A stretch of DNA of 32,000 nt from Candidatus Nanoarchaeia archaeon (lineage in GTDB: Archaea > Nanobdellota > Nanobdellia > Woesearchaeales > JANQNC01), in the NCBI GenBank assembly GCA_028279745.1, contig JANQNC010000001.1, positions 1,260,001 through 1,292,000 on the forward strand. Direction: 5' to 3'. The notes under the pieces were generated by a model. The model ran no database searches, was not told the origin of the DNA, and saw only the letters and a program-made list of their open reading frames with translations. Made by a program: the position numbers and the translations under genes. This document shows positions 3,561 through 30,292 of this stretch, piece after piece (position 1 is the stretch's first letter; the number at the start of each line of letters is the position of its first letter).

Positions 3561-3570
3561 ATAATAAATA

Positions 3571-3819: not shown

Positions 3820-3846
3820 GCAATATAGTGATTTCTAGTCCGAAAA

Positions 3847-4695: not shown

Positions 4696-4764
4696 ATGGT
4701 TGAATGGTTAAATGGTGGTAGTAATGTTGGCTAATTATTTTCTATATAGAAGATAATTAAGGAA

Positions 4765-4794
4765 AAAGTAATACTTAAATACTAGTATTACTTT
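4765..4794. promoter_or_regulatory. inverted repeat AAAGTAATACT-N8-AGTATTACTTT upstream of vapB (candidate operator)
   Basis: Perfect 11-bp arms at 4765..4775 and 4784..4794, ending 10 nt upstream of the vapB-like ATG. A TATA-like CTATATAGA lies at 4742..4750. Confidence 0.45.
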
Positions 4795-4803
4795 ATTACT
4801 ATT

Positions 4804-5046
4804 ATGACTGTGAAGACAATCAAAGGGGTAAATGATGAAGATTGGAGGGAGTTCAAAACTCTTGCAGCTCAAAGCGGAGTGAAAGTTGGAAAAATGTTCA
4901 AAGCACTATTAGAAAATTACAAAAAAGAACAGGATAAAATATGGGGTTCAATACTTAACAAGGAAAAACTGTTGTCAGATGAAGATGCAAGAAAGATGAG
5001 GGCTTCTCTTTCAACACTCAGAAAAGAGAAAGGGTTTAGAATATGA
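4804..5046 (+). CDS. vapB: VapB-like antitoxin (RHH-type), 80 aa
   Basis: The N-terminus IKGVNDEDWREFKTLAAQSGVKVGKMFKALLENY resembles archaeal RHH antitoxins. There is a 4-nt ATGA overlap with the downstream PIN gene. Confidence 0.65.
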   Translation: MTVKTIKGVNDEDWREFKTLAAQSGVKVGKMFKALLENYKKEQDKIWGSILNKEKLLSDEDARKMRASLSTLRKEKGFRI

Positions 5047-5435
5047 GCTTTGTGGTAGACACATCAGTCTTGATAGATATAGCTAACAACAAGAAAGAAA
5101 CAGTTGATAAACTAAACAAGATCATAAAGAAGGACAGTTCAATCCCCTGCATCACGTTCTTGAACGATTTTGAATTCAGATACGGGCTTAAAGATAAATC
5201 AGAAAAAAACCAGATGAAACTGTTGGAATTCTTAAACAAGTTTATCCTTCTAAACACAACTAAAGCAACACCAATAATCTTGACAGAACTTAAGCACAAA
5301 TATGACAAGTCGGGAGTTGTTCTTTCACTTACAGACCTTTTGATAGCTTCTATCGCTATAGAGAACAATAACACATTGATAACAAGAGATTCTGATTTTG
5401 CTAAGATAGAAGAGTTGGACTATGTGGTTCTGTGA
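5043..5435 (+). CDS. vapC: PIN-domain ribonuclease toxin VapC
   Basis: 130 aa. FVVDTSVLID supplies the first acidic PIN residue. LTDLLIASIAIENNNTLITRDSDFAKI is the typical C-terminal PIN motif. Confidence 0.85.
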   Translation: MSFVVDTSVLIDIANNKKETVDKLNKIIKKDSSIPCITFLNDFEFRYGLKDKSEKNQMKLLEFLNKFILLNTTKATPIILTELKHKYDKSGVVLSLTDLLIASIAIENNNTLITRDSDFAKIEELDYVVL

Positions 5436-5633
5436 TGAATTCTAGTTTTGCTATATGATGCTGCCAAAAAGCTTATATATGATTAATACTAATATATACT
5501 TTCTGATAGTATAAAAAGAGGAAACATTTGCAAGCGACCAAATCGACCCCTTTAATGACCATTATAAGTTTCTGACACTTTGAAACAAAAATCGATCGTA
5601 GGGAGACGGAGAAATATGCGCAAATGAATAGAA

Positions 5634-7289
5634 ATGAAAAGATTAGTAGTAACTATGGTGTTTGTAGCTATGTTGTTCTCGGTAGTCTGTATTGCAACAC
5701 CGATAGGTTATTATGGGTTTGAGTCAGGAAGCCAAGGGTGGTCATTTGGGGGTTCAGATGCTAATAGGGACTCTACAAGAAGCAATAAGCAAGATAGCGG
5801 TGCGGCAGGTGGAAGTTGGTCAGCACACGTACAGGATGACAGTTCCACATCACATTTTGAACAAAGTTTTGATTTCTCAGGATACGATTCAGTAAATATC
5901 ACGTTTGATTATTACCCTGAGAGTATAGATTCAGGAGAATACGTTCAGTTATTTTGTGACAGCACAGAGATATGGAGGTTTACTAATGGAGATCATGGTC
6001 AAAGTTCTTGGTATACAACAACAGTAGAAATTACGCCTTCTGATTGTACACTTGACTCATCAGTACAGATACAGTGGGAAGGAGATCCAGGATTATCGGG
6101 AAATATAGATGATATGTGGGTTGATGGGATAGATCTGGAAGGAATAATAGCACAACAACCACCAACAACACCAACATCAATAACATGTGATGGAGGAAAT
6201 TGCAACAATACCTTCTATTCAGATGTGGAGTTAATCTGTAGCGGAAGTACTGACCCCGATGGAGACACAATAACTTATTCTATCGAAGCATACCATGGTC
6301 AACAAGGTGTTGGCAGTATTGCTCACGATGCAACAACAACTAACCAAGGAAGTGGTGATAGAAGTTTTTCTCACACGATAGGAGGTGGAAATAATAGATT
6401 GTTAGTTGTGGGAGTTACTTTTGAGGATTCTTTAGCCGATAAAGTTGTTAACAGTGTAACATATAATGGGGTGACAATGACACAAGTTGATTGGGCAAGA
6501 GCAGGAACAGGATATTCACAATACACGGCATTTTATTATTTGTTAGAATCAGATTTACCTTCTTCAGGTTCTTACACAGTTAATGTTGATGTATCAGCAA
6601 CGCCAACAAGAAATGTTATGGTTGGTGTAAGTTCTTATGAGAATGTCAATCAAGCACTAGATGATAGCTGTACATCAAACACAGGGCAACCAATCTCATG
6701 TTCAATCACAACAATAGAAGACAACAGTTGGGTGATGAGTGTAGTAGGAAATGGAGGCGGAGGAGACTACACCTACAGTGCAGGAAATGAAAGATATGAG
6801 TTAGATGGTAGTGCATCTTCCTCAACAGGTGCAGGAGGAGATGATATTGACACCAGTGCAGGATCATTCTCAGTATCATGGAGCCATTCAGGAAATGTAA
6901 GACAAGCACTAGTTGCTGCTGCATTCTCGCCTGCAAACACGACAGTATATGCATGGAATTACATAGGCAACCACACAAACGGATCAAGCTTTGTATGGAA
7001 TTTTACAGGGATAAACCCTTTACCTCAAACAGATGTAGACTTAAGATGCAGAGCAAAAGACATAAGCGGAACAGATACTTATTCATCATACTACGATCCT
7101 GCAATAAATATGACACTTTCTTTAGATGCGCCACCTTCTTTGCCAGATAAGCCAGCAATAATAAGCTGGGTGATGACAAAGAAAAAAGGAGATAAGAAAA
7201 ATCAAGTAGAGATAGTTGAAGAAGATCCAGCAAAAATAACCTTTGTAGAAAGCACGATGGACAGTACCCAAACGATCTCGTTTGGCTAG
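5634..7289 (+). CDS. secreted beta-rich protein with an N-terminal jelly-roll/MAM-like region and a DPDGD Ig-like domain
   Basis: Signal peptide or TM (LVVTMVFVAMLFSVVCIA). YGFESGSQGWSFGG...SWSAHV is reminiscent of MAM/CBM-type jelly rolls. CSGSTDPDGDTITYS is a PKD/Ig-like motif. The protein is Ser/Thr/Gly/Asn-rich with many N-x-S/T sequons. Confidence 0.75.
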   Translation: MKRLVVTMVFVAMLFSVVCIATPIGYYGFESGSQGWSFGGSDANRDSTRSNKQDSGAAGGSWSAHVQDDSSTSHFEQSFDFSGYDSVNITFDYYPESIDSGEYVQLFCDSTEIWRFTNGDHGQSSWYTTTVEITPSDCTLDSSVQIQWEGDPGLSGNIDDMWVDGIDLEGIIAQQPPTTPTSITCDGGNCNNTFYSDVELICSGSTDPDGDTITYSIEAYHGQQGVGSIAHDATTTNQGSGDRSFSHTIGGGNNRLLVVGVTFEDSLADKVVNSVTYNGVTMTQVDWARAGTGYSQYTAFYYLLESDLPSSGSYTVNVDVSATPTRNVMVGVSSYENVNQALDDSCTSNTGQPISCSITTIEDNSWVMSVVGNGGGGDYTYSAGNERYELDGSASSSTGAGGDDIDTSAGSFSVSWSHSGNVRQALVAAAFSPANTTVYAWNYIGNHTNGSSFVWNFTGINPLPQTDVDLRCRAKDISGTDTYSSYYDPAINMTLSLDAPPSLPDKPAIISWVMTKKKGDKKNQVEIVEEDPAKITFVESTMDSTQTISFG

Positions 7290-11219: not shown

Positions 11220-12443
11220 TTATCTAAACACTTTTTTTATCTTTTCTTCTTTTTTGATCGATTTAGATATTGAGTTAGGTATGATCTTTATTATCCTTGG
11301 ATTTTTCTTTACTAATTCCTTGATGTTCTTCTTTACAAGGATGGAAGCTATACCTCCTGATTTTCCCCTAAAAGTTTTCAGAAGGGAGTTCAACAGATCG
11401 TTCCTGTCCTTCAAGCCAACACGCATGTTTTCAAAAGAGTTTGCCAGTTCTCCAACTTCATCTTTTGAATCTATCTTACACGTAGTATTAAGTTTACCTT
11501 TACTTATCTTTTTTGTAACTTCAGTCAGTTTTTGCAGCGGCTTAGATACTGAGTTAGCGATATAAGCACCCAACACAGTAGATGCTAAGAAAGACACTAT
11601 TATAACTCCTAATAAGGTATAATAAGTAGTCCTTGATAATGATTCATTTTCATACTTGATGCTGGAAGTCATTTTTTCTTCGTCAAGTTCCAGCTTTTTA
11701 ATTATCTCTGTAAGATGTTCTATCTTTTCTCGTTCATCGACTTCAATCCTTTTCTGTTCTATCACGATCTTTCCTATTTCGGGAGCTAGCTCACCGTATG
11801 AGTTAAGGACGATTAGAAAAGATTCTTTCTCTAATCTTGAAATGTTAGCTTGTCTTAAGTCCTCTTTAACGATTTCAATGCTGTTTACCCATTTGTCTAG
11901 GTGAGTCTTATCTTGGTACTGGAATAAAGTCTCTTTACTGTAATACTCCATAAGCGCGATGTCCCCTCTTAGTTTAATATCGTCGATTAGCTCCAAAGAG
12001 TTACGTATAGAATGTCTTGATTCTTTCTCAAATACGTATTTTTCTGCAAACTCTTCTTGTTGGGTAAGCTTTTTCTTTTGGACATTGATTATATCATCAG
12101 AAACTTCTGAAAATTCAGCGATGTCCTCCTCAAAAGTGTCTGAGAGAGAATTTATCAGCTCTTTATTCTTTTTGTACAGAGAATCAAACTCAATCCTTAT
12201 TTGCTCTATCTCTGATCTCATCCTGTAATACTCGTCCAGGTCGTGGGTTTCTATCAGTTGCAAGACTTGTACCAGAGAGTCATCTAGTAGTTTTTCAATC
12301 TCAATGATCTCAATTACAACCTGATCATTTTTTTGGATGGTGTTTGATGTTGTAAACCCAAAGATACCTACAAATATCAAAAGAAAGGTGATCAAAAGAA
12401 AGCTGATAATAAGTTTTATTCCTATCCTCATTTTATTGCACAT
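11220..12443 (-). CDS. membrane sensor-like protein: TM, about 250-aa helical extracytoplasmic region, TM, HAMP domain, no recognisable output domain
   Basis: TM1 is IKLIISFLLITFLLIFVGIFGF and TM2 is YYTLLGVIIVSFLASTVLGAYI. The HAMP signature is SKPLQKLTEVTKKISKGKL...SKDEVGELANSFENM. Only about 60 basic residues follow it. An alternative start is at 12431. Confidence 0.75.
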   Translation of the reverse strand: MCNKMRIGIKLIISFLLITFLLIFVGIFGFTTSNTIQKNDQVVIEIIEIEKLLDDSLVQVLQLIETHDLDEYYRMRSEIEQIRIEFDSLYKKNKELINSLSDTFEEDIAEFSEVSDDIINVQKKKLTQQEEFAEKYVFEKESRHSIRNSLELIDDIKLRGDIALMEYYSKETLFQYQDKTHLDKWVNSIEIVKEDLRQANISRLEKESFLIVLNSYGELAPEIGKIVIEQKRIEVDEREKIEHLTEIIKKLELDEEKMTSSIKYENESLSRTTYYTLLGVIIVSFLASTVLGAYIANSVSKPLQKLTEVTKKISKGKLNTTCKIDSKDEVGELANSFENMRVGLKDRNDLLNSLLKTFRGKSGGIASILVKKNIKELVKKNPRIIKIIPNSISKSIKKEEKIKKVFR

Positions 12444-12631: not shown

Positions 12632-12640
12632 TTTATAAAA
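12632..12640 (+). promoter_or_regulatory. putative TATA box (TTTATAAAA) for the first flavoenzyme gene; implies a leaderless transcript
   Basis: Centred about 27 nt upstream of the ATG at 12663, inside a 219-bp AT-rich divergent intergenic region. Confidence 0.35.
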
Positions 12641-12662: not shown

Positions 12663-13865
12663 ATGCAGAAAAAATATGATGTAGTGATTGTAGGAGCAGG
12701 TCTTGCAGGGTTGAGTGTTGCACAAGAGCTGCAAAACAGGAATGTGTCCTTTATCGTTGTTGAAGGCAGTAAAAAATTTGGTCATAGGCATCATATCGGA
12801 ATTTTTAACAGTCAGGTGAAGAAGTTCAATCTTGAAAGCTGTGTAGTCAACAGGTTGAGGAGATTTACCTTTTTAACACCTGCCAAGTCATTTGTACATC
12901 TATTCGGAAGAAAAGAAGGGATATCATATGTTGACCTTAATAAGTTGAGTTCTATCATTGATAAACGGATCAAGGGAAAAATAAGATTCAATACCTGGAT
13001 AAAGGATATATGTTATGTGGGTGGTGAGCTATGTCTGGTGGATGAAAATAAAAATAACATTTTTGCAAAGATGGTGATAGACTGCAGCGGAAAAGGTTCT
13101 TCCATCTCTTCAAAGATGGGGGTAGAGGGAAGCGATATTTATTGTAAGACCCTATCGTATACGTTAGATAATTGCAGTGCAAAAGATAAATCTAATTCGA
13201 TCACTTTTCTTGATTCATCTCTCACTAGTTCGGGCGGAGCTTGGATCGTCCCATTAAAAGGAACCAAGTTCCATGTAGGGATAAGCAACATGTTCCCATA
13301 TAATAAACCTGGGCGGGAAGAGCTTGAAAAGAAGCTAAACCTGTTTTTGATAAAAAAAGAGATACATGGTGTAGATTTTAGAAGGTCAAGAAGGATAACT
13401 AAAAAGATCTTTAAGGACTCTCCAGCTATAAGGCCCGCAAAAAGATTTGTAAAAGATAATCTTATATTACTGGGAGATTCTGCAGGGCAGCCTTCCTCCT
13501 TTTTTGGTATGGGGAGTCCCGCGATATTAGATATGGCGCGTGTGGCTGCAGGTATTGTGGAAGAAGCTGTTAAAAAGGATGATTTCTCAAGATCGCAGCT
13601 TTCAAGTTATGAAACGTACTGGAAAAAAAATTTTGGAAGATATGAGTTTTTTAATGGAGTCCTTAGAGAGATAGTTATGCGGCTGTTTGACGATGAAGCC
13701 TGGGACCTGATGATAGATAAGCTAAACTCTTTATCAGGCAAAGAATTCTTTGAAGTCCTTAAATCAAATTATACCCTGGGCATATTGTTTAAGCTGTCCT
13801 CTTTCCGATTGGCTATTAAGCTATTCTCAAATTTTATAGAGGTGGTCTATGACAGGAGAGTATGA
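12663..13865 (+). CDS. FAD-dependent oxidoreductase, geranylgeranyl reductase-like (paralog 1, divergent)
   Basis: N-terminal dinucleotide fold YDVVIVGAGLAGLSVA...VVE, the DCSG region, and LLGDSAGQ (GD motif). 400 aa. Confidence 0.75.
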   Translation: MQKKYDVVIVGAGLAGLSVAQELQNRNVSFIVVEGSKKFGHRHHIGIFNSQVKKFNLESCVVNRLRRFTFLTPAKSFVHLFGRKEGISYVDLNKLSSIIDKRIKGKIRFNTWIKDICYVGGELCLVDENKNNIFAKMVIDCSGKGSSISSKMGVEGSDIYCKTLSYTLDNCSAKDKSNSITFLDSSLTSSGGAWIVPLKGTKFHVGISNMFPYNKPGREELEKKLNLFLIKKEIHGVDFRRSRRITKKIFKDSPAIRPAKRFVKDNLILLGDSAGQPSSFFGMGSPAILDMARVAAGIVEEAVKKDDFSRSQLSSYETYWKKNFGRYEFFNGVLREIVMRLFDDEAWDLMIDKLNSLSGKEFFEVLKSNYTLGILFKLSSFRLAIKLFSNFIEVVYDRRV

Positions 13866-15066
13866 TATAGTCGTAGTGGGCGGAGGCCCTGCAGGGTTGA
13901 GCTCAGCTTTGGAGCTAGGCAACAAGAAAGGACTCAAAGTTTTGCTTATAGAGAAAAACAGGATAGGCGTATCTACAAAAACAACTTCTATCTGGAAAAA
14001 TCAGCTAAGAAAGTTTGATCTACAAAAGTGTGCATACAACAACACTGAAACTTTTAGCGTTGCTTCGTCTGTAGATAGTATGAGGTCAACACATAGGGGA
14101 GATATGAGCATGGTAGACCTATCTAAAGCCCTAAACAGCCTTAAGAAAAGGATAAAAAATTGCGAAATTAGGGAAAACACCGAGCTTAAAAACTTCAGCT
14201 ATGTAGACGGAGGATTATCGCTTGATACTAACAAAGGAGAGATAAAAACCAAGTTACTCATAGACGCTTCAGGTTACAAAGGAGTATCAACAAAAAAATT
14301 TGGTCTTCAGAAAAACATGTTTTTCTACCAGTGCTACGCTATGGAGTGTAAAGTCCCTGATTATGATACTGATTCAGTCCTGCTTTGGGACCTTTTCGAT
14401 AAAACAAAAAAAACCAGCTTCTGGATAGATGTCTTTTCGAAAAGAGATATTGTAGTTGGTGTGATGATGATAAGAAAGAGAAAGTGTTCTTATGAAAAAT
14501 TGGAAAAAGAATTAAGAAGATACATAAAAAAGAAAAAGATAGTTTGCAACCCCATAGGGAAAAGGTGGGGTATCCTGCCCATGTATAACTTTGAAAAGGC
14601 ATATTTTGAAAGGGTCTTGCTGGTTGGAGATGCTGCATCACAGGTGATACCTGGCAGCGGATACGGGTTTATGTCTGCTCTAAAAAATGGAAAGATAGCA
14701 GGCAAGGTTGCGTATAAAGCGATAAAAAAAGGTAACTGCAGCGAGGTATTTCTTAAATTGTATTCAAAACTGTGGAAGTCAGGAAAGATAAGAAAGTATG
14801 ACCTTAATGCACTTTTACTTTTCCTGGAAACCAAGATGACTCCTGCAGAGACCGCTGCCAACGTAAAGATAATGAACCATCTATGTGACAAGGATGCAAA
14901 AGATATACTTACAGATGTACATGATATCAAGCTTATGGCAAAGGAACTGTTCTGGGCGTTTAAGGAGATACCTATACTAAAAATATTCAAACGATTTACG
15001 CTTAGGGACTATCCTGTATTTTTTGGTTTGGTCTTAAAGATTGTCAAGGACATGGTCTGGTTTTAA
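13849..15066 (+). CDS. FAD-dependent oxidoreductase, geranylgeranyl reductase / lycopene cyclase-like (paralog 2)
   Basis: YDIVVVGGGPAGLSSA, LLIDASGY, and LVGDAASQVIPGSGYG (a GDAA..V.P..GY motif). It overlaps the upstream gene by 17 nt. Confidence 0.8.
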   Translation: MTGEYDIVVVGGGPAGLSSALELGNKKGLKVLLIEKNRIGVSTKTTSIWKNQLRKFDLQKCAYNNTETFSVASSVDSMRSTHRGDMSMVDLSKALNSLKKRIKNCEIRENTELKNFSYVDGGLSLDTNKGEIKTKLLIDASGYKGVSTKKFGLQKNMFFYQCYAMECKVPDYDTDSVLLWDLFDKTKKTSFWIDVFSKRDIVVGVMMIRKRKCSYEKLEKELRRYIKKKKIVCNPIGKRWGILPMYNFEKAYFERVLLVGDAASQVIPGSGYGFMSALKNGKIAGKVAYKAIKKGNCSEVFLKLYSKLWKSGKIRKYDLNALLLFLETKMTPAETAANVKIMNHLCDKDAKDILTDVHDIKLMAKELFWAFKEIPILKIFKRFTLRDYPVFFGLVLKIVKDMVWF

Positions 15067-15068
15067 AA

Positions 15069-16322
15069 ATGAAAGAATACGATGTTGTGATAGCAGGAGG
15101 GGGTCCCGCAGGATTGAGCGCTGCGATGGAGATCGATAAATGTGAAGATATACGTTCACTTATACTAGAGAAGGGCAAGATCAATGTTTCTAAGAAATCA
15201 ATATGTGTCTGGAAACATCAGCTTAAAGATTGGGATGTTGAGGACTGTATCGACAATGAGCCAAGACTAATCAGCATAGGTTCATCTGTCAGCAATGAAT
15301 TCTCGATCCACAAAGGAGTGATGGCCGTGTTGAATGTTAACAAGATGCTGGAGAAATTCAGTAAAAGAATCAAAAAGTGTGAAGTTAAGCAGAATACCCG
15401 TCTGAACAGCTTTTATTATGTGGGTGATGGGCTTATCTTAAAAACGACCAGAGGAAAGATAAAAACAAAATTATTGATTGATGCAGCAGGCTATAAAAGC
15501 CCAGCTGTAAAGAAGTTCGGCTTGCAAAAAGACAATTTTTTTTATCAGTGTTTTGTAGTCGATTGTAAAGTTTCTGAGTATGACAAGATGAACGTTCAAC
15601 TGCTCTGGGAAATAATAGATTGGAAAAAAAAGGAAAACTTTTGGATAGAGGCACATTCAAAAAATTCGATCTCTATCGGTGTAATGACTGTGAGGAAAAA
15701 GAGATGTTCCTACGGATACCTCAAATCAAGAATTTTTGAGTATATAAAAAAAAAGAAAATCAAATGCACCCCCTGTGATTATAAGTGGGGGGTCTTGCCT
15801 ATGTATAACTTTGAGAAGACATATTTTAACAGGGTCCTGTTAGCGGGAGATTCTGCTTCACAGGTTTTGCCTAGCAGCGGGTACGGCTGTGCGGCAGCAC
15901 TAAGAAACGGGAGACTTGCAGGAAAAACATGCATCCGAGCTTTGCGCGAGGGAGACTATAGTGAGAAGTACCTTAAGTTTTACTCAAAAGCATGGAAGCA
16001 CAGTGTAATATGTAAGTATGACTTGAATGCGATCTTTCTGCTTATCCAGAGCAGGATGACTGCATCCGAAACAGAAGCATACATAAAGTTAGTGCAACAA
16101 CTTGACAACAGATCATATAGAGAAGCGCTGACAGGTTCAGGAAGACCTTCGCTTTTATTAATCGAATTTTATCTTTTTTTAAAAGAATTCCCTATATTAA
16201 ATGTGATAAAGAGGCTAAAAGTTAAAGATTATCTAAAATTGTTTGCTTTGACCCTGCGCCTGGTAAAAGATTCTTTCTACGAAACTTATCATAACCTAAT
16301 GGGGACTAACTGGCTGAAGTGA
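15069..16322 (+). CDS. FAD-dependent oxidoreductase, geranylgeranyl reductase / lycopene cyclase-like (paralog 3)
   Basis: YDVVIAGGGPAGLSAA, LLIDAAGY, and LAGDSASQVLPSSGYG. By eye it is roughly half identical to paralog 2. It starts 2 nt after the upstream stop. Confidence 0.8.
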   Translation: MKEYDVVIAGGGPAGLSAAMEIDKCEDIRSLILEKGKINVSKKSICVWKHQLKDWDVEDCIDNEPRLISIGSSVSNEFSIHKGVMAVLNVNKMLEKFSKRIKKCEVKQNTRLNSFYYVGDGLILKTTRGKIKTKLLIDAAGYKSPAVKKFGLQKDNFFYQCFVVDCKVSEYDKMNVQLLWEIIDWKKKENFWIEAHSKNSISIGVMTVRKKRCSYGYLKSRIFEYIKKKKIKCTPCDYKWGVLPMYNFEKTYFNRVLLAGDSASQVLPSSGYGCAAALRNGRLAGKTCIRALREGDYSEKYLKFYSKAWKHSVICKYDLNAIFLLIQSRMTASETEAYIKLVQQLDNRSYREALTGSGRPSLLLIEFYLFLKEFPILNVIKRLKVKDYLKLFALTLRLVKDSFYETYHNLMGTNWLK

Positions 16323-16377: not shown

Positions 16378-18750
16378 ATGGATACTGATCTTTATTGGGA
16401 AGAAGAGGTAGCAAGCAGCGGGTTCAATTATTTCTTTGATTATGTTATATACAAGCTGAAGGAGAAAAATTCTTTAGTCGGGGAAAAAGAGATCGTTGAA
16501 CAGACCCTGGAAAAATTATATGCAAAACTCAACCTGACAACTGATCCAGAAAAGAAAAAGCTGTATGATCTCTTATTTGACCCAAGAGAATATTCAAAAA
16601 AGTATTCAAAGAAGGCATCTTTCTGTTTAGCAAACAGGATGATAAGCTCTTTAGAAGAAATTGTGGGTGATGCAAATTTTGCTGAGAACGTGGCACTTCA
16701 TGTGATCAATGGGAAATCCAGGAGCCAATACAAGCTCGAGATACAAACTAACCAGTTAGATACAGTCGGCAGGATTGCCAGAAGAGTGAATATGTTCTTC
16801 ACTGAGAAGCTTAGCGGTGTTCTATTAAAAACATATATGGTGTTTACTAAAAATAAATATGAGTTTCTGTTGAATGTTGTAAAGAAAGCGCTGAAGGATA
16901 TATTTCCTTCAGTCAACCTGGAGATTGAGTTCCATAAGAAACATGCTAAACTGAACTATAGTTATAATGATGATAGTAAAATGAAATATCATAGCGTGGG
17001 CATAGAAAACTCTTTCATAAGGCAGGTCCAGCACACGCCCTTGGTGGTGGGTCTCCCGAGTTTTAAGGCTAAACTGATCAAGTCAATAACAAGAGGAGAT
17101 GATAAGACTGTTGTCAGGATGGACTATGTAGAAAGGGGACGAGACACGATCGAAGGTCTGCTATTGAAGATAGAAGAGCAGAAAGCTGCAAAACAGGTTA
17201 TAGAAGAAAAGAACAGGGAAAATGAACTTTTAGTCAAAGAGTTAAGCGACAGTTCAACCTATATAATCGCGGGTAAGATCGCTAGGGCGTTTGCTTACTC
17301 AAACCAGTACGAGTTATTCTTATGTGCGGGAAATTTTGATGCCGCAAAAAATTCATTGAAGGAGGCCCAATCAATGTTTCAAGAAGCAGTTACAGATTAT
17401 GTATCTGTAGATAAGGCATATACAGATGTAAGAAAGACTGATTTTGATTTTGAAAGAATATTGGGGGATTTTGTTGCAGTATCAGCACAAGCAAAACTTG
17501 CAGGCGCTACTGTGAGCTCCTTAAAAATGAAGAAGGTGAGAGGGAGTAATAAAGCAGTCATTATTGAGAGAAGGACAGATCCTCTACAGATCGAAGGTGA
17601 GAGGTCTTGGATAAAAGACTATCGTAAGTTTGACAGGGGAGAGGATGAGAATAATGTCATAAACTATCTTAAGAGAAATTTTTCAGACGACCCTATACTT
17701 AAATTTCCCTCTTTTCATCTCTTTATACGCCTGGAGAGAAATCCTGCGATGGGGATAAAGGAGGATAAAGCTTTAGCTCTGACTACTGAGAGGAACGAGT
17801 CAGAGGTTGATACGCTTTACGATGAAGTTTTAGATGCTGCCAACGCAGAAGAAAGGTTCTCTTTGCTTGAAAAGAAAGTAGACCTGATAGCTAGATGTGC
17901 TGCAGTGGGTCCTTGGCATATAGTAAGAGAAGGAAAGACCCTTCTTCTTGAAGAGGATTATTTTAACTTTCTAAGGTCAGAGTTTGATGGCATAGACATA
18001 TCTTCGATCTTTGCATACTTAGAACCTGTGGTGTCTGCTTTATCAAAGTATCCTATCAGGGGCTATTTTAGAGATAATAATCTGGGCAATTTTTACAACG
18101 ATGAGATGTTTGATTTTGACACTGCACTGATAACCACACCTCTTGCTGATCATGCGAAATTCTTGAATCATGTAAGGCTGTCTGAAGATCGGGAGCGATC
18201 AAGAGCGTTTAAAGAGAAATTTTTGGATGATGTGTTAAAAGCATATAATAGAGAAGCAAAAGATCTGTTGCATAAGAAGCTTGTTCAGGTCGATCTTAAA
18301 AGCTTGTTGCTTAAAAAGATAGATGTCTATTCAAGAAGGTTATACTTGGGAAGTGACGCCATGTCTGATGCTGTTAAAGCTCTGCAATCATATCCTTTTT
18401 CCAGCATCCGAGGAGGTATCGAGATCCTTAAAGGAGAGCTTGAGTCAGGCTCAAGATTAGAACCATACCTGGAAGGTATCATTGAGGATATTGAAGAAGC
18501 GAAGTTTATCTTTTATAATGAGACAATCTTCACAAGTTGTCTTGCAAAAATACCCTATCACCTGAACTTGTATGGAAAAGGGGTCTCTGAGTGGATCGAA
18601 GATGCGGCAGATGCAGTTGACCAGATAGGGCAGGAAAGATTTGAAGAATACCGTAAGAAATATTATCCAGGTGGAGATAAAGCGTCATCAAAGAAGCTTT
18701 GTGGTCTAAAGAAAAGGTTGGAGTCGTTGGAGAATGATCTATCAAAATAA
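16378..18750 (+). CDS. large cytoplasmic hypothetical protein, 790 aa, no recognised domain
   Basis: Uninterrupted 2.4-kb ORF with ordinary, helix-rich composition. No TM, no P-loop, no nuclease or metal motif that I can identify. It overlaps the downstream PHP gene by 17 nt. Confidence 0.8.
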   Translation: MDTDLYWEEEVASSGFNYFFDYVIYKLKEKNSLVGEKEIVEQTLEKLYAKLNLTTDPEKKKLYDLLFDPREYSKKYSKKASFCLANRMISSLEEIVGDANFAENVALHVINGKSRSQYKLEIQTNQLDTVGRIARRVNMFFTEKLSGVLLKTYMVFTKNKYEFLLNVVKKALKDIFPSVNLEIEFHKKHAKLNYSYNDDSKMKYHSVGIENSFIRQVQHTPLVVGLPSFKAKLIKSITRGDDKTVVRMDYVERGRDTIEGLLLKIEEQKAAKQVIEEKNRENELLVKELSDSSTYIIAGKIARAFAYSNQYELFLCAGNFDAAKNSLKEAQSMFQEAVTDYVSVDKAYTDVRKTDFDFERILGDFVAVSAQAKLAGATVSSLKMKKVRGSNKAVIIERRTDPLQIEGERSWIKDYRKFDRGEDENNVINYLKRNFSDDPILKFPSFHLFIRLERNPAMGIKEDKALALTTERNESEVDTLYDEVLDAANAEERFSLLEKKVDLIARCAAVGPWHIVREGKTLLLEEDYFNFLRSEFDGIDISSIFAYLEPVVSALSKYPIRGYFRDNNLGNFYNDEMFDFDTALITTPLADHAKFLNHVRLSEDRERSRAFKEKFLDDVLKAYNREAKDLLHKKLVQVDLKSLLLKKIDVYSRRLYLGSDAMSDAVKALQSYPFSSIRGGIEILKGELESGSRLEPYLEGIIEDIEEAKFIFYNETIFTSCLAKIPYHLNLYGKGVSEWIEDAADAVDQIGQERFEEYRKKYYPGGDKASSKKLCGLKKRLESLENDLSK

Positions 18751-19666
18751 GTACGTTGACTGTCATGTGCACACTTTAAGGTCGGACAGCACAGAACCTC
18801 TAGGTAAGCTGGCAGAGAGGGCAAAAAAGTGCGGGCTTGAAAAGATAGTAGTGACTGATCATCATTGTTTCTATCCTGCAGAGGAGCTTGAACGGGTAAG
18901 CAAAGAGAAAAATATCATCATCGAATCAGGAGTTGAGATCTGGACAACATTCTTAGGATGTGATGTTCATATACTTGGTTACGATCTAAACCCTGATGAG
19001 GTGCTGGTCAAGTCACTGCGTCCTGCGCTAGATGAGGAGAACGAGCTGGCCAGGCGAGCCATCAAAGAGTATATTGATCTGGGTATAACCATGCCTTCTT
19101 TTGAGGAGATCAGGACGAGATCTTATGGGTCCCTTGAGCCGATCTCACGCAAAGAATACGTTGATCTGAAGGATGTTGCGGCAGCAAGACACCATCTGCA
19201 TAACGTGGATTTTGATGCTGCTTTAAGAGAAGTACAGAGAACAAAGTATACTGGAGAATCAACAAGACTTATCGATGTAGAATCAGACTTTGAGCATATG
19301 CCTGTCGCAGCTGCTATCAATATGATCAAAAACTCAAACGGTAAAGCAGTGATAGCGCACCCGGGATTTGTATTTCATACTTCTAGACGACCTAAGATAG
19401 AAGACTGGTATTTTTTGTATGAGCTGTTCAGAGAGTGTTCAAAGGAAGACATAGATGGTGCAGAGATCGTATCTTTGTGGCATGATGAGAGATATGGTTA
19501 CAATTTCCTTGCTGAGCTAAATGCGTCTTCGGAAGATCATGCAGTAAAGAAATACAAAGAAGAGATATATGGGATTGTAAAAAAGTTTAGGCTGCATACA
19601 AGAGGTTCTGATGATCATGGATGCTACAAGAAGCAATTTTTGCTTGAAAGACTATTTAACTATTGA
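18734..19666 (+). CDS. PHP-domain metal-dependent phosphoesterase (TrpH/YciV, COG0613-like)
   Basis: VDCHVHTLRSDS, VVTDHH, GVEI, VHILGY, VIAHPG and GSDDHG match the PHP metal-ligand motifs. Confidence 0.85.
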   Translation: MIYQNKYVDCHVHTLRSDSTEPLGKLAERAKKCGLEKIVVTDHHCFYPAEELERVSKEKNIIIESGVEIWTTFLGCDVHILGYDLNPDEVLVKSLRPALDEENELARRAIKEYIDLGITMPSFEEIRTRSYGSLEPISRKEYVDLKDVAAARHHLHNVDFDAALREVQRTKYTGESTRLIDVESDFEHMPVAAAINMIKNSNGKAVIAHPGFVFHTSRRPKIEDWYFLYELFRECSKEDIDGAEIVSLWHDERYGYNFLAELNASSEDHAVKKYKEEIYGIVKKFRLHTRGSDDHGCYKKQFLLERLFNY

Positions 19667-20554
19667 TTCTGCCAGGTGATTTATCTTCATAAGTACTGTC
19701 AAGAGGTAGTGTAGTACCATCCGATTATTATTGCTGACTTTTGGAAAGAGTTCTAAAGCCTTTTCTTCAGTCGCTTCTCTTTTTTGTGTGTGTTTTGACA
19801 GTGCCGCAAGGTCAACCTTATAGAATACCTCATATGTCCCTCTGAACAAAGCATTTACCTCTTTGTATATATCTAAGACTTCGTTGGTCAATGTGGGCTT
19901 TTCTTCTTTTATCAGATATTTGCATAGGTCCCTATAAGCGTCTGCTATCTGATCAAGTTCTCTTATCAGAGCATATATAAACAGAGTCTTCCTATATTCC
20001 TTATATCCTTTTTTGTTAAGTATCCTTTCGCATAAGTTACATAGCTTATTGTTCATCCTTTCCATCGCTTGAACTTCGTTGAGCTGTTCCATCTTCCTGC
20101 TCGTTATCTTTGTATAGCTTTCGTCAGCCATAGATAATGTGAGCAGGAACAGTCTTCTTATTATCGTATCTATCTCTGTTTGTGACTCCTCCATAAGGTT
20201 TTTTATAAGACATTTCTTGTTATCCTGATTGACGATATCGAAACCCATGAGTTGTTCTGATATCGCTTTCTGCAGTTTGTTCAGTATTTCGATATTGTCG
20301 AACGTTATGTGTATCTCATCATAGCCGTACCTGTACATCGCTTTGATGTCCCTTACGTTGTAGTCATAACCTTTGCTTAGGTCTAATGCGATCTTTTGTA
20401 TAGACTGTCCTTTGTCTAGTTTGAGCACTATCTTATTCTCGTACTCTTCGACATCGATGTCATCACCCTTTTTTATCTTATTCTTCTCTACCCATTTGCT
20501 TGGCAGAGATACAACTTTGGTGAATTTACCTACCTGTACAACTTTCCTTTTCAT
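19652..20554 (-). CDS. AbrB/SpoVT-domain plus PhoU-like domain transcriptional regulator
   Basis: The N-terminus KVVQVGKFTKVVSLPSKWVEKNKIKKGDDIDV is a swapped-hairpin AbrB-type motif. The C-terminal helical repeats resemble archaeal PhoU-type regulators (COG0704-like). Confidence 0.65.
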   Translation of the reverse strand: MKRKVVQVGKFTKVVSLPSKWVEKNKIKKGDDIDVEEYENKIVLKLDKGQSIQKIALDLSKGYDYNVRDIKAMYRYGYDEIHITFDNIEILNKLQKAISEQLMGFDIVNQDNKKCLIKNLMEESQTEIDTIIRRLFLLTLSMADESYTKITSRKMEQLNEVQAMERMNNKLCNLCERILNKKGYKEYRKTLFIYALIRELDQIADAYRDLCKYLIKEEKPTLTNEVLDIYKEVNALFRGTYEVFYKVDLAALSKHTQKREATEEKALELFPKVSNNNRMVLHYLLTVLMKINHLAESIVK

Positions 20555-20830: not shown

Positions 20831-21625
20831 ATGTTATCAACTAAGAATGCAATCGAACCATTGATCGGGCTTGGACTAAATAAGTATGAGGCAAAAGTGT
20901 ACCTCACTTTGATAGGGGAAGGAATCAGTACAGCTAAGAATATTTCGGATATTACTGGAATCCCTTATGGAAAAGTTTATGAGGTTATAAACGCGTTGTC
21001 TTCAAAAGGGTTCTGCACGATACTTCCTTCAAAACCCATGAAGTGTCAGGCCATATCTCCTAGGGATGCTGTGATAAACGCAAAAAAAGATGTTGAAGAA
21101 AGATATGATAAGCTTGAAAGCCACATAGTGTCAGAGTTGGAGCCTCTGTTCGTAGAGAGCAGAAAGTTTGTGGAGCCCAAAGGGATATTCTGGGTGATAA
21201 ATGGGAGAGCAAACGTGGTGAAAAAGATAGATGAGCTTATCCAGAAGGCAGAGAAAAATATATGCATACACTGCTCACCAAATAGTCTTTCAAGACTTGT
21301 CCTGCATAAGGAGCTGTTGAGAGAGGCAAATAAAAGAGGCGTCAACATATCTATAGCAGGTGTTGTGAACAACGAAGTCCTTGAAGAGATAGACTCATTA
21401 GACTTTTGCGACATAAGAAAAGTAAAAAGTGCAAATAACAACTTGTTCTCTATAGACGATAAAGAGTGTTTGATAATAGAGCCGATGCCAGATGATGAGA
21501 ATATATTATATGGAAGAGACTTGGGAGTTTGGGTATCATCCTCTTCATTCACTAAGTTCATGTGCGATTTTTTTGCCACAAACTTTAAGAAAGCAAAATC
21601 TGTTTTTCCTCCTGTCAGTAAGTGA
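20831..21625 (+). CDS. TrmB family transcriptional regulator (paralog A)
   Basis: LGLNKYEAKVYLTLIGEGISTAKNISDITGIPYGKVYEVINALSSKGF is a canonical TrmB winged-HTH. A C-terminal TrmB-type effector domain follows. The GGGGGGGTGA SD-like motif lies 6 nt upstream of the ATG. Confidence 0.85.
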   Translation: MLSTKNAIEPLIGLGLNKYEAKVYLTLIGEGISTAKNISDITGIPYGKVYEVINALSSKGFCTILPSKPMKCQAISPRDAVINAKKDVEERYDKLESHIVSELEPLFVESRKFVEPKGIFWVINGRANVVKKIDELIQKAEKNICIHCSPNSLSRLVLHKELLREANKRGVNISIAGVVNNEVLEEIDSLDFCDIRKVKSANNNLFSIDDKECLIIEPMPDDENILYGRDLGVWVSSSSFTKFMCDFFATNFKKAKSVFPPVSK

Positions 21626-21688
21626 ACAGGATACTTTTTTTTCTTAATATAAAAAATAGATAAATATTCTTTATGTAACTACAAGATT

Positions 21689-22486
21689 ATGGAAAACACT
21701 GACAGAGCGTTTAGGATACTGTCTGATATCGGACTGAATAAATATGAAGCAAAAGTGTATCTAACATTGGTGAGTGAAGGGGTAAGCACCGCAAAGAACA
21801 TATCAGAAATTACGGGGATCCCATATGGGAAAGTATATGAGATAATAAACACTTTATCATATAAAGGATTTTCTATGATACTCCCTTCAAAACCTATGAA
21901 GTATACGGCAATATCGCCAAAACAGGTTCTTTTCTCTTCTAAGAACGAGACGCTAGATAAGTTTAGGAAAATAGAAACAGATATAGTGAACAATCTGGAA
22001 CCTTTGTTTATGAAAAACAGGCAGTTCACACAACCAAAGAGTGTGTTCTCACTAGTCAACGGCAGATCTAGTGTAGTGAAGAAGACTGAGGAGCTGATAA
22101 ACAAGGCTAACAAAAATATACATATCCAGTGCAGTGCAAATTCATTGTCGCGGCTAGTGCTCCACAAAGAGGCGTTGAAAAATGCTGCAGACAGAGATGT
22201 AAAAATAGCTATTGCAGGCATAACCGATGAGAGCAATAAGAAAGAGATAAGCTCTTTAGGGTTTTGTGATGTAAGGCAGATAAAAAGATCAAGAAGCAAT
22301 TTCATCTCAGTAGACGCGAGTGAGTGTTTAGTTGTGACCCCCTTTCCAGACGATGAGAACATAATCTTCGGAAGAGATACAGGAATGCACATACTAAGCA
22401 GCTCATTCACGTCTTTTACTGATAATTTTTTCATATCAAGTTTTAATAGAGCAAAAAAGATTGATTTATCCACTAAGCTGAGATAA
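21689..22486 (+). CDS. TrmB family transcriptional regulator (paralog B)
   Basis: IGLNKYEAKVYLTLVSEGVSTAKNISEITGIPYGKVYEIINTLSYKGF. It is colinear with paralog A over its full length and roughly 55 percent identical by eye. Confidence 0.85.
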   Translation: MENTDRAFRILSDIGLNKYEAKVYLTLVSEGVSTAKNISEITGIPYGKVYEIINTLSYKGFSMILPSKPMKYTAISPKQVLFSSKNETLDKFRKIETDIVNNLEPLFMKNRQFTQPKSVFSLVNGRSSVVKKTEELINKANKNIHIQCSANSLSRLVLHKEALKNAADRDVKIAIAGITDESNKKEISSLGFCDVRQIKRSRSNFISVDASECLVVTPFPDDENIIFGRDTGMHILSSSFTSFTDNFFISSFNRAKKIDLSTKLR

Positions 22487-22583
22487 AAAACTTACCTGAT
22501 ATCTCTTGATTAAAAAAGAATAATAACTTCTTTCCCTTAGACTTTCAAAAAATAACTTTAAACGTAAAAGGGTGAGGGTCAAA

Positions 22584-25500
22584 ATGGTAAAAATAATGAA
22601 CTTTAAGTCTATCAAATCTATTTTATTTCTGTTTGTATTTTTTTTGTCTATCGTAGTTGTATCTGCAGCAAACTGTTGGGATTATGATCTCCAAACTAAT
22701 TGTGAAAGTGCAGACTGTAGCTGGAATGAAGATCCCTGGGGGGGATGGTGTGAGGAAAAAGGATGCTGGAATTTTTGGTCAGAAAATGAATGTACAAGTT
22801 CGACAAGCACTATAAATAGATCTTGCAGCTGGCAATCATCTTCATCAGGTTATTGTGGGGAGTTGGATTGTTGGTCTTTTGACGGGACAAACGAGACAGC
22901 ATGCGTAAATAATACATATAACATAGAATGTGAATGGATAGATGAATATAATGCAACAACCTGGGACTTCCCCTGTATGGGCCCTCCAGAAAAACAATGC
23001 TGGAACTATACAACATCTGAATCCTGCAGTGCGGTTGCAGGGTGTAGCTGGGGGATGTGCTCTAAAAAGGATTGTTGGGACTATTCTGATACGGATGAAT
23101 ACACTTGTGAATCTCAAGTCGGATTCAACAAAAAATCTTGCGAATGGAAAAGCTATTCTTGGGGCAGTGAATGTGTAGAACGAGGGTGTTGGGACTATAG
23201 CAATGTAACTTCTTGTGAATCAAATGGATGTAAGTGGGACGGAAGCTGTATGGAGCTTTCTTGTGGAGAATTTACTGGAGTAAATGAAAGTTATTGTGTA
23301 AGCAACAGCGCAAACCTAAGCTGTGAATGGGATTCAGCAGGTAAGTGGTGTATGGAAAAAGGATGCTGGAACAATGATGAAGGAAGTTGTGACAACGGCC
23401 TTGGCTGTTTTTGGGATACTTTTGAAGGGGGGTGGTGTCAAGAGCAAGGGTGCTGGAACTGGGAAAATAACCAGACAGCATGTGAAGATACAGGTCTTCA
23501 TCCAGGACTTGAATGCACTTATGATGTTAGCGGAGGGTGGTGTTATGAAGACGTTGGCTCCAAATCCTGTGCAGACATCAACGTAGAAAGAGACTGCATG
23601 GATACTTTTTACTGTTGGTGGGATCACTCTCAGAGCACATGCAACGATCCTGGCGCAGGTATAGAGACTGAGTTTGAAGAATGGAACCCTGGCTGTTATA
23701 TCTTTGATATGGATCAAAATGCCTGTGGAAATGTTACTGGTTGTTATTGGAGCGGCGGTGTGTGTGAAACAAACATGACTGTGCTTCCTACTAATGAACT
23801 AAACTGCAGCCTTATACAAGACTCAGATATGTGTAATAACATACCTGCATTGAGCAGCTGCTGCAGCTGGCAAGCTGGAGAGTGTGTGGCAGATAGATTC
23901 GATCAGTCTTGTCGTGAGGAGATGCAGGAACCGCCTGAAGGAGCACATTATTGTGAAGACTATGTGGCATACACAAGCAAAGATGTATGTGAACAGATAG
24001 CGGGAAGCCCCTGGTTTATGCCGTGCGAGTTTGATAATTCTACTGAAAGATGTGAGTTTAAAGGAGATGATGTCTTTGGAGATGGAGACAAGAACATAAT
24101 GAAGATAGACAATGAGATAAATTGTGAAGCTGCAGGAGGAAAATGGATCCTTGACACATATCCGAGTACGAACAATGCAAGCACAGCCGTAAGACTATCT
24201 CTTGGAAGATGTGACTTTAAATTTGATGAAGAAAGAAACTGCAACAAGGAATGTTTTGCATGTGAGTACAAACAAGACAAGACAAATTGGGGTACCGTTG
24301 CAGATGCAAGGAAAGCATGTGTCGATTCAGAGCTTGGACTTTGTAGATTTATAGAAGATCCAGATGCGCCAAACAGCTACGGTTATTGCGAACCAAAAGA
24401 GGAATTCAAGAAAGGGCTTGTAGGGGGAGACTGCAGCACTGATTGTGGTGCATGCACCTATATGGGAGACCCTGCAGCATCAGCAGGAAAAAGGCCATCA
24501 GATTACTGTGAGGGCAGCGATGCAAAATGCAAGTGGGTAGCAGATCCTTCACATCCTGATGATGAAAGCTTTGGAAGATGTGCATCAAAATCCGAAAAGA
24601 CATGTGAGGATAGATGCGATAAATGTTATGATGAAAGCAACTGTCAAAGCACAGGAGGAAAACAAGGAGACTCAAGTGCAGCAGCAGTATGTGAATGGAA
24701 CAATGGAATATGCTCATATAAATCGGGAGCAAGCGAGATGGAAGTATGTTGGGATGGACAGGACAACAACGGGGATAATAAGGTAGACTGCGCAGATTCT
24801 ATGTGCTGGTCAGACCCCTTTTGTGGCGGAGAGTTCATGTTTGGAGACTTCGGAAAAGACTGTTTCATGTTTAACGAACAATCAAGCTGTGAAACTGAAG
24901 GTTGTGCATGGGTAAACGAGAACTGGGGCGCATGGTGTGACATGCCTGGAGCAGTATGCTGGAAAAAAGACGGAACAAACCAGACAGTTTGTGAAGATGG
25001 CGGAAGCTGTGAATGGCACTCAGGCTTCGGAGGATTCTGCGAGCAGGACTGGGATATGGGGGGAGCTGCAAACTCATGCTTCTCAGCGACAAACCAGACA
25101 GGCTGTCAAGCACTATCAGACCAGAACTGCACCTGGGTTATCGACGAATGGTGCAGCGAAAAAGGAGGATTCTGTGACCCAGACCCTTCTTACAGCGGAG
25201 CATGGTATGATTGTGCACAGCATGACGTGGATGGAAATGCAACTTGTGAATCACATGCAGAATGCAACTGGTATGTGGATCCTTGGTGTCAGCAACAAGG
25301 AAGCGATGCAGGATTCTGTGATCACAAAAGCTTTGCGTGCTGGCAGTATGATGACGGTCAAAACATATGTGAGAATTCAACAAACTCAGAGTGGTGTGTC
25401 TGGATGACTGACCCTTACTCTCCTGAAGGAGGATTCTGTGAAGGAAAGATGATGAGTGGAGAATCAGGAAGCTGTTGGGATCAGAGCAACCAGACCAGCT

Positions 25501-28460: not shown

Positions 28461-28514
28461 CCTTTTCTTCTTTTATCGAGGGGTTGTCGATAGGGTCAGG
28501 AGGTGTGTAAAACC

Positions 28515-30141: not shown

Positions 30142-30292
30142 TTTTATTATCACCTCTGATTTATTGCAAAAATTGTTTTTACTTACGGTATGGGGAATTA
30201 AAAACGTATTAACCTTTTTAGTACCTTTAAAAAGAGAAATTGTTTTATCTCCTGTGGGGAGTTAGTGGGGGAAGGGGGTTTTGATGGGTGAG

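Follow-up and report, generated by a model that had tools for sequence, protein, structure and literature searches.

Paired flavoenzymes of the geranylgeranyl reductase superfamily without the catalytic cysteine, in a diverged five-gene block of a nanoarchaeal genome

Experimentally active geranylgeranyl reductases (GGRs) share a GxGxxG motif, a YxWxFPx7-8GxG motif, a GGG motif (GEG or REG in non-archaeal GGRs) and the FAD-switch motifs RxxFD and LxGD, and every one of them has a cysteine in its active site, on the far side of the isoalloxazine ring (Cys45 in TaGGR, Cys47 in SaGGR) (PMC6309074; PMC10821996). RxxFD and LxGD are missing from SaGGR itself and hence are not strictly defining (PMC10821996). 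Archaeal GGR paralogs are generally linked to polyterpene saturation, and for the arCOG00570 paralogs the proposed activity is saturation of polyprenols, quinones or carotenoid-like polyterpenes (PMC10821996). For lycopene cyclases, the catalytic hallmark is the Glu of the FLEET sequence, which lies in cyclase motif I (PMC10381880). Here we analyze a 32,000-nucleotide stretch (the window) of a Candidatus Nanoarchaeia archaeon genome (assembly GCA_028279745.1, contig JANQNC010000001.1, positions 1,260,001 to 1,292,000 of the forward strand), in which three tandem genes encode flavoenzymes of the GGR superfamily. The three proteins belong to two clades, A and B, whose genes are paired at other loci as well, and they lack the catalytic motifs of both GGRs and lycopene cyclases. 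Two further genes, one for a protein with almost no detectable relatives (ORFan) and one for a PHP-family phosphoesterase, complete a five-gene block that is more diverged than its flanks.

Our preferred reading, tentatively held and placed a little short of even probability, is that A and the duplicated B are the two components of a GGR-superfamily system that modifies isoprenoid C=C bonds without the usual Cys and is encoded in a fast-diverging five-gene block. The paralogs would be soluble or membrane-peripheral FAD enzymes, with A and B made together from translationally coupled genes and working either as a heteromer or in two consecutive regiospecific steps. Reduced flavin would be used to modify polyprenyl/isoprenoid C=C bonds, most probably by hydrogenation, and the duplicated B could add a second substrate or position specificity. 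The PHP phosphoesterase may have a phosphorylated head group or intermediate as its substrate, and the five-gene block would be operon-like and would diverge or be exchanged much faster than its surroundings.

Gene structure and family placement

The three flavoenzyme genes are arranged as follows, with the evidence for each in brackets.

12663-13865, + strand: paralog 1, clade-A flavoenzyme, 400 aa (open reading frame (ORF) list, Pfam/NCBIfam profiles, tree)
13849-15066, + strand: paralog 2, first clade-B copy, 405 aa (profiles, AlphaFold model, tree)
15069-16322, + strand: paralog 3, second clade-B copy, 417 aa (profiles, tree)

Paralogs 1 and 2 overlap by 17 nt, paralogs 2 and 3 are separated by a 2-nt gap, and a GAGGTG Shine-Dalgarno sequence lies 6 nt before the paralog-2 ATG. 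Each protein has an N-terminal GxGxxG and a GD(S/A)A(G/S)Q motif. A preliminary description, made from the DNA letters and their ORFs, had reported three same-strand genes of ~400 aa with these junctions and motifs, and the ORF list agrees with it on every point; the peptides it quoted (KTKLLIDASGYKGVSTKKFGLQKNMFFYQC, KTKLLIDAAGYKSPAVKKFGLQKDNFFYQC, VGDAASQVIPGSGYG, AGDSASQVLPSSGYG and ILKIFKRFTLRDYPVFFGLVLKIV) were all found in the translated ORFs. It had also called paralogs 2 and 3 duplicates and paralog 1 divergent, which matches the 49% identity between paralogs 2 and 3 (399 residues, E 2e-145) compared to 29% between paralogs 1 and 2 (E 2e-29) and 25% between paralogs 1 and 3 (E 6e-21). 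The duplication behind paralogs 2 and 3 has left a trace in the DNA, a 185-nt stretch at 72% identity with a spacing of 1220 nt. The three ORFs are real genes and not chance ORFs, because they have significant Pfam/NCBIfam matches, a confident model for paralog 2 (predicted local distance difference test (pLDDT) 93) and syntenic homologs at other loci.

All three window paralogs pass the gathering score of PF01494 and that of PF05834 (Lycopene_cycl; 35.1, 69.3 and 52.6 bits for paralogs 1, 2 and 3 vs a gathering score of 23.4), and PF05834 is matched by all 11 members of clades A and B. Canonical GGR homologs also match PF05834, and the match is therefore not discriminating. TIGR02032 (GG-red-SF) was the best NCBIfam model for all three paralogs (68.7, 105.3 and 78.1 bits), always above the lycopene cyclase model TIGR01790 (43.8, 75.6 and 49.7 bits vs a cutoff of 209.5), and the CrtL model NF045687 gave 59 and 36 bits against a cutoff of 500. 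The initial assignment of these genes as GGR or lycopene-cyclase-like flavoenzymes is supported.

Paralog 2, the one paralog that was modeled, gave an AlphaFold model with pLDDT 93.2 and a predicted template modeling (TM) score of 0.92 from a 66-sequence alignment. Its best PDB matches in Foldseek were Ta0516 GGR (3OZ2; TM score 0.80, E 1e-23, 407 columns) and SaGGR (TM score 0.78), and the model has the three-domain architecture of GGRs. After the GGRs, FixC ranked seventh (TM score 0.64) and halogenases occupied ranks 9-50; no lycopene cyclase structure was among the best 50 fold matches. According to a 2023 paper no experimental lycopene cyclase (LCY) structure exists (PMC10381880), so the fold comparison is unable to separate GGR from cyclase. 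The clade-A profile aligned colinearly with Ta0516/3OZ2 over profile positions 3-352 (85.1 bits). By fold and best profile, the three proteins are members of the GGR superfamily (group-A flavoprotein fold).

A C-terminal extension had been taken as a hint of membrane-surface association. The Ta0516 alignment covers the whole protein (407 columns for a 405-aa query), so the region is no extension but the helical domain with which proteins of the GGR fold normally end. No transmembrane segment was predicted in paralogs 1, 2 or 3, where the maximum 19-residue hydropathy was 1.28, 1.13 and 1.66, respectively.

The A-B gene pair and the five-gene block

Relatives were sought with a word-indexed search of 5.8 billion proteins, which was not exhaustive (it missed the genes of locus L066, described below), so its counts are lower bounds; L and P numbers are our handles for loci and proteins. 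Paralog 2 had at least three close relatives (P0003, 32% identity; P0004, 34%; P0005, 28%), beyond which it matched abundant GGR-like proteins at ~29% identity over 76% of the query. Paralog 1 had at least two (P0122, 29%; P0123, 25%). A neighbor-joining tree (Poisson distances, 391 columns, 100 bootstraps, CrtY outgroup; not maximum likelihood) grouped clade A with 85% and clade B with 67% bootstrap support, joined paralogs 2 and 3 with 100%, and placed CrtY on a long, separate branch. A and B appeared as sisters in only 6% of bootstraps. Clades A and B are old, distinct, non-sister subfamilies that travel together, and the threefold expansion suggested at first is better described otherwise: paralog 1 sits in a separate old clade and only B was duplicated.

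An A-type gene is followed directly by a B-type gene at five independent loci (the window, L066, L059/L060, L003/L004 and L063), with junctions ranging from a 17-nt overlap to a 19-nt gap. At the sixth locus, L067, the A-type gene overlaps a non-B flavoprotein gene by 4 nt. L067 was the sole further locus that a metagenome scan returned with the C-terminal signature of clade A, and the partner gene had a single Pfam match, NAD_binding_8, and no PDB sequence match.

Paralog 1, C-terminus: clade-A signature W.. FGRY ... DEAWD
L067, 10339-11487, + strand: partner flavoprotein, 382 aa, with GxGxxG...NIGGRI and the look of an amine oxidase or phytoene desaturase

Among solitary genes, the closest relatives are the bacterial outliers P0005 and P0123. 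The conserved unit is the A-then-B pair, and the third gene of the window is a lineage-specific B duplicate; the two B copies of L066 (f2 and f3, 30% bootstrap) are not clearly the same duplication as that of the window. Tight translational coupling, seen at each of the loci, agrees with proteins produced in stoichiometric amounts, whether as a heteromer or for two consecutive steps. The arrangement is no routine part of lipid loci: relatives are very sparse and no lipid genes occur at any of the loci. The surroundings of L067 encode Mre11/Rad50, a RadA-like protein, a topoisomerase, a XerC-type integrase and DNA methylases.

The span first described omits two co-oriented, tightly packed genes downstream of paralog 3, both syntenic in L066. 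Together with a TATA-like box upstream, the additional features of the block are:

12632-12640, + strand: TATA-like box TTTATAAAA, ~23 nt before the paralog-1 ATG, within a 219-nt AT-rich intergenic region; read by eye
16378-18750, + strand: 790-aa ORFan, 55 nt (AT-rich spacer) after paralog 3; predicted to be mostly helical, with no transmembrane segment
18734-19666, + strand: PHP-family metal-dependent phosphoesterase, 310 aa, overlapping the ORFan by 17 nt; 43% identical in L066

From its sequence and position, the TATA-like box is a putative archaeal promoter that would give a leaderless or short-leader operon transcript. A sigma-70 scan found sites no more frequently than in shuffled controls.

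Locus L066 belongs to a divergent relative (GCA_028279725.1). Its gene order runs from KaiC and rhomboid through A, B, B, a 773-aa protein and PHP to a MazE/PhoU-like protein, two TrmB regulators and a giant protein of ~1960 aa. The A-B-B genes, the 773-aa protein and PHP therefore sit between the same flanking genes as in the window. Identities between the window and L066 are listed for the block and then for the flanks.

Clade A: 29%
Clade B: 33-37%
ORFan: 27%
PHP: 43%
KaiC flank: 66%
Rhomboid flank: 48%
MazE/PhoU-like flank: 52%
First TrmB flank: 72%; second TrmB flank: 65%
Giant protein flank: 64%

The block genes (27-43%) have diverged significantly more than the flanking ones (48-72%; p = 0.002 in a one-sided Mann-Whitney test). 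Furthermore, the A protein of L066 is 48% identical to that of the unrelated contig L059 and 29% identical to window paralog 1, and L066_A and L059_A group with 100% bootstrap support. This closer relationship of L066_A to L059_A points to cassette replacement or strong diversification, and relaxed constraint is a further possible cause of the divergence.

The ORFan had no Pfam, NCBIfam, PADLOC or PDB match (Pfam and PDB searched to E <= 10) and returned nothing from the word-indexed search. When 1.84 billion cluster representatives were searched exhaustively with HMMER, a single relative emerged, P0139, which is encoded on the syntenic contig L066; an AlphaFold model from the resulting two-sequence alignment was of low confidence (pLDDT 36). 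Among the other loci, the gene after A-B in L003 has a weak colinear pairwise match to the ORFan (E 5e-5), the corresponding genes in L063 and L059 have no detectable ORFan similarity, and L067 lacks such a gene. The link to the ORFan is weak beyond two genomes, and the A-B pair is therefore the conserved core. In the C-terminal half, the ORFan and P0139 have a common pattern, F[RK]D..L.N ... [FI]D[FI]D ... P.A...K.L, that resembles the catalytic-loop and metal-binding motif in kinase-like (APH/choline-kinase) folds; profile and PDB searches lent this likeness no support.

Catalytic motifs and competing explanations

Several observations weigh against a GGR-superfamily system acting on isoprenoids. 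An alignment of 72 sequences, including authentic CrtY from Pantoea ananatis and Thiodictyon plasmids, showed that the GGR Cys box (PVRCGEG) is absent from all three window paralogs, which read KFGHRHHIG, VSTKTTSIW and VSKKSICVW (paralogs 1, 2 and 3) at this position. A nearby cysteine in paralog 3 is out of register and is not kept across clade B, and in the clade-A profile Cys45 of 3OZ2 falls opposite a non-Cys position. RxxFD is also absent, the aligned residues being VDLNKLSS, VDLSKALN and LNVNKMLE. The YxWxFPx7-8GxG cavity motif is reduced to [FY]W...G, as seen in GGAWIVPL..VGIS, TSFWIDVF..VGVM and ENFWIEAH..IGVM, where the Trp alone is invariant and the Tyr, the Phe-Pro and the terminal Gly are not conserved. 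The GGG/GEG position reads GMG in paralog 1 and GYG in paralogs 2 and 3, with GEG kept in other clade-A members (L066_f1 and P0122). LxGD is present in all three, as LLGD, LVGD and LAGD.

The profile scores and the gene context point in the same direction. TIGR02032 scores (68.7-105.3 bits) are far under the curated cutoff of 158.8, the digeranylgeranylglycerophospholipid (DGGGPL) reductase equivalogs NF041080, NF041160 and NF041385 gave at most 67.5 bits against cutoffs of 580-780, and PF22578, which canonical GGR-type homologs match, was found in none of the 11 clade members (E <= 0.1). By PDB profiles both clades are about as near to FixC and the pyrrole halogenases as to GGR, and the clade-B profile scored FixC (85.9 bits, in three pieces) and PltA (78.6 bits) above Ta0516 (71.7 bits). 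No prenyltransferase, mevalonate, GGGPS/DGGGPS, carotenoid, electron-transfer flavoprotein (ETF) or ferredoxin genes adjoin any of the six cassettes, and the ORFan/PHP link to the pair is firm in two related genomes only, being weak in L003 and absent in L067. The sole hint of an isoprenoid context is a weak one and comes from P0123, a distant A-like protein (25% identical to paralog 1, contig GC 63%) encoded directly after a UbiA-like prenyltransferase, a membrane protein with a UbiA-type NDWGDRELD sequence (L061, 8922-11227). PMT_2 glycosyltransferases and a flippase lie near P0123 in L061, and these surroundings suggest a polyprenyl-phosphate-linked glycan pathway.

By the defining features tested, the proteins are therefore neither GGRs sensu stricto nor lycopene cyclases. 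Scores far under the cutoff, the missing catalytic Cys and RxxFD and a degenerate YxWxFP exclude canonical GGRs, and the lack of a FLEET-type acidic motif excludes lycopene cyclases.

Two side observations concern clade B. The Cys in KKxCxIxEN (Cys105 of paralog 2) is invariant in all seven clade-B proteins and absent from clade A, canonical GGRs and CrtY. The Asp of LxGD is replaced in two other B copies, L066_f3 (IGN) and L059_B (VGE).

We consider it unlikely that the proteins work in the manner of lycopene cyclases, as redox-neutral cyclases, isomerases or hydratases of isoprenoids, with reduced FAD as a non-redox cofactor and protonation of a terminal double bond by an acid of the enzyme. 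Non-redox chemistry of this kind would fit the absence of the redox Cys of GGRs, the PF05834 matches of all three paralogs and all 11 clade members agree with it, and clade B has several likenesses to CrtY: its GDxAxQ..P..GYG is nearer to CrtY PTTGYS than to the canonical GGR GGG/GEG, IDASGY resembles VIDGRGY, P.SGYG resembles PTTGYS, and the Trp motif of most B members, NKIWSAF, resembles GNHTWSF. The nearest outgroup of clade B is a PF05834-only bacterial group with one NCBI-annotated 'lycopene cyclase family protein'; the neighborhoods of its members P0119 and P0059 held nothing informative. The earlier suggestion that GDAA..V.P..GY is closer to the lycopene-cyclase type thus stands for paralogs 2 and 3 as far as GYG resembles CrtY GYS, but it does not extend to the acidic motif, which is missing, or to the Pfam match, which is nonspecific. 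At the position of the acidic motif (FLEET in plants, LIEDT in CrtY; PMC10381880), authentic CrtY shows LLIEDT or VLVEDT, where the same strand reads VGIS, VGVM and IGVM in paralogs 1, 2 and 3 (VGVG in GGR), and the Glu/Asp pair occurs in no member of clade A or B in the 72-sequence alignment. TIGR01790 (44-76 bits vs 209.5) never exceeds the GGR-superfamily model, LxGD is kept by the window proteins and absent from CrtY, CrtY lies on a distant branch, and no crtE, crtB or crtI gene was found in the 32-kb window or in L003, L059, L063, L066 and L067.

It is very doubtful that these are ordinary, fast-evolving housekeeping DGGGPL reductases that saturate the cell's own or scavenged membrane lipids, with a gene order of no special meaning. 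GGR-superfamily and DGGGPL reductase models are the top NCBIfam matches and the fold is that of GGR, several GGR paralogs per archaeal genome are well documented (PMC10821996), and a DPANN archaeon is reported to keep GGR homologs despite an incomplete lipid pathway (PMC8975820). However, the Cys, YxWxFPx7-8GxG and GGG/GEG of active GGRs (PMC6309074) are not conserved. Equivalog scores reach about one tenth of the cutoffs, and relatives are extremely sparse in the 5.8-billion-protein database where canonical GGRs are abundant. Identities of 29-37% beside neighbors at 64-72% are unexpected for a housekeeping enzyme, and the consistent pairing of two clades has, to our knowledge, no counterpart among housekeeping GGRs. 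On the preferred reading, the enzymes are not the housekeeping digeranylgeranylglycerophospholipid reductase.

Two other branches of the fold score well in some searches. O2-dependent flavin halogenases or monooxygenases tailoring a small secondary metabolite, with the ORFan and PHP as biosynthetic or resistance parts of a variable natural-product cassette, are a highly improbable explanation. PltA is the best single-sequence PDB match of paralog 1 (E 1.5e-13), followed by Mpy16; it ties with Ta0516 for the clade-A profile (85.1 bits each), is second for clade B, and halogenases fill ranks 9-50 of the fold search. Hypervariable accessory cassettes are also typical of secondary metabolism. Against this, PF04820 gave 19.8 and 20.7 bits for paralogs 1 and 2 vs a threshold of 21 and is not listed for paralog 3, the NCBIfam CmlS model gave 20 bits vs a cutoff of 900, and the position of the halogenase motif WxWxIP (WVWQIP in PltA) reads GAWIVP, SFWIDV and NFWIEA in paralogs 1, 2 and 3. 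PltA aligns only at clade-A profile positions 1-37 and 132-333, leaving the catalytic-Lys segment unaligned, whereas Ta0516 aligns at full length; a desulfoferrodoxin neighbor in L059 suggests an anaerobe, and no carrier-protein, polyketide synthase/nonribosomal peptide synthetase or flavin-reductase genes lie nearby. A halogenase placement, which the preliminary description had named as contradicting its assignment, is thus not what the sub-threshold PF04820 scores and the missing WxWxIP indicate, though PltA remains the best single-sequence match of paralog 1.

Least probable of all, in our estimate, are FixC/ETF-QO-type electron-transfer flavoproteins that pass electrons between a carrier and a quinone and do not modify a substrate. 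FixC (7koe_C) is the best PDB sequence match for paralog 2 and for the clade-B profile (85.9 bits) and ranks seventh in the fold search, and ~40% of archaeal GGR-paralog arCOG00570 proteins have a FixC-type domain annotation (PMC10821996). The sequence match is nevertheless split into three short pieces, the fold match (TM score 0.64) is below that of GGR (0.80), no FixC model is among the listed NCBIfam matches, and no fixA/fixB (ETF), fixX or ferredoxin gene was found in the window or at the six cassette loci. Judging from sequence, we see halogenases and FixC as neighbors of these proteins within one fold and not as their family, and both are low-probability rivals.

A bolder version of the preferred reading of Cys-independent GGR-superfamily chemistry is that A-B(-B) with the ORFan and PHP constitutes a cassette, not described before, which uncultured archaea with small genomes exchange horizontally or diversify. 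Its flavin chemistry on isoprenoid lipids might serve, for example, the tailoring of scavenged or surface lipids, with rapid turnover driven by interaction with hosts, viruses or competitors and not by housekeeping; we regard this as distinctly improbable.

Neighbouring genes and relation to known systems

The window is archaeal by its content, encoding TrmB regulators, a class III signal peptide protein, KaiC and a CARDB-domain protein, and neighboring genes of note are:

11220-12443, - strand: membrane protein with two transmembrane segments and HAMP, without an output domain; divergent, upstream of the cassette
19652-20554, - strand: 300-aa protein with a MazE/AbrB-like N-terminus, converging on the PHP gene with a 15-nt overlap of its 3' end
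20831-21625 and 21689-22486, + strand: tandem TrmB regulators, tandem in L066 too
21679-22473, antisense: 264-aa ORF over the second TrmB, with no Pfam match; probably spurious
22572-28460, + strand: giant 1962-aa ORF
28503-29255: CARDB-domain protein, after the giant ORF
29683-30153: class III signal-peptide (pilin-like) gene
30293-31504 and 31312-31947, - strand: T2SSF-domain (PilC/FlaJ-like) ORFs, overlapping by ~190 nt in different frames

In the place of the HAMP protein, L066 has several small ORFs and a RadC gene (2974-6300), and the region from rhomboid to the cassette is therefore also variable. The L066 ortholog (52%) of the 300-aa MazE/AbrB-like protein has a weak PhoU match. The giant ORF has a signal-peptide-like hydrophobic segment at residues 11-37 and a C-terminal membrane anchor at 1937-1962; it is acidic, contains 7% Cys, has no Pfam match and a 64% identical L066 ortholog, and its GC content is 0.44-0.49 compared to ~0.37 elsewhere in the window. 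It is probably a huge Cys-rich surface protein. The overlap of the T2SSF ORFs may stem from a mis-called start or a frameshift, or the ORFs may be two genes.

Neither a defense system nor a mobile element or virus was supported as an identity for the block. There were no significant PADLOC matches, no phage or viral-contig relatives were found, and plasmid matches were generic (24-26% identity). No flanking repeats, integrase or tRNA were found around the cassette, and the 32-kb window has no rRNA or tRNA genes.

The roles of many archaeal GGR paralogs in quinone, polyprenol and polyterpene saturation are a standing question (PMC10821996). From the present locus two sparse clades emerge that are consistently encoded together and do not have the cysteine found in every active GGR tested so far. 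If these enzymes do reduce or otherwise modify isoprenoids, they would show that the fold allows another catalytic solution and might be the first heteromer in the family, while if they are merely fast-evolving accessory reductases the result would be an ordinary one. The conserved flanks around a diverged cassette mark a place where lipid or small-molecule tailoring may face diversifying pressure in uncultured, probably small-genome archaea. The length of the source contig, 1.30 Mb, is the one fact in favor of the early suggestion of a reduced-genome host that scavenges lipids.

Archaeal GGRs (Ta0516/TaGGR, 3OZ2; SaGGR, 3ATQ) have the same three-domain fold as the window proteins (TM scores 0.78-0.80), with a C-terminal helical domain and ~400 aa, and have GxGxxG, LxGD and the invariant cavity Trp in common with them, at 17-19% identity to window paralog 2 in structural alignment. 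In the window proteins the Cys45/47 box and RxxFD are absent, YxWxFPx7-8GxG is degenerate and GGG is replaced by GYG or GMG. Archaeal GGRs are also encoded by single genes, some with a ferredoxin or ETF neighbor, whereas the window type comes as paired clades. CrtY, CrtL and LCYB share PF05834 and FAD with the window proteins, and clade B has a similar IDxxGY, P..(S/T)GY(G/S) and mostly the N-terminal Trp motif; the FLEET or xE(E/D)T acidic motif is theirs and is missing here, and the reverse holds for LxGD. PltA (5DBJ), Mpy16 (5BUK) and FixC (7KOE_C) are same-fold neighbors whose profile scores of 65-86 bits are near those of GGR, but their matches are partial or fragmented, and WxWxIP, a PF04820 score above threshold and an ETF/FixABX context are not found in the window.

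The arCOG00570 paralogs reviewed by Rao and Driessen (2024, PMC10821996) are likewise divergent and multicopy, often without some GGR motifs, including Cys47. That review describes no coupled tandem pairs or triplets, no DPANN-type lineages, no ORFan and PHP link and no locus divergence. The multiplicity of GGR paralogs was already known. In the literature searched we found no account of the obligate pairing of A and B, of the absence of the catalytic cysteine, of the linkage to the ORFan and PHP or of the block's excess divergence.

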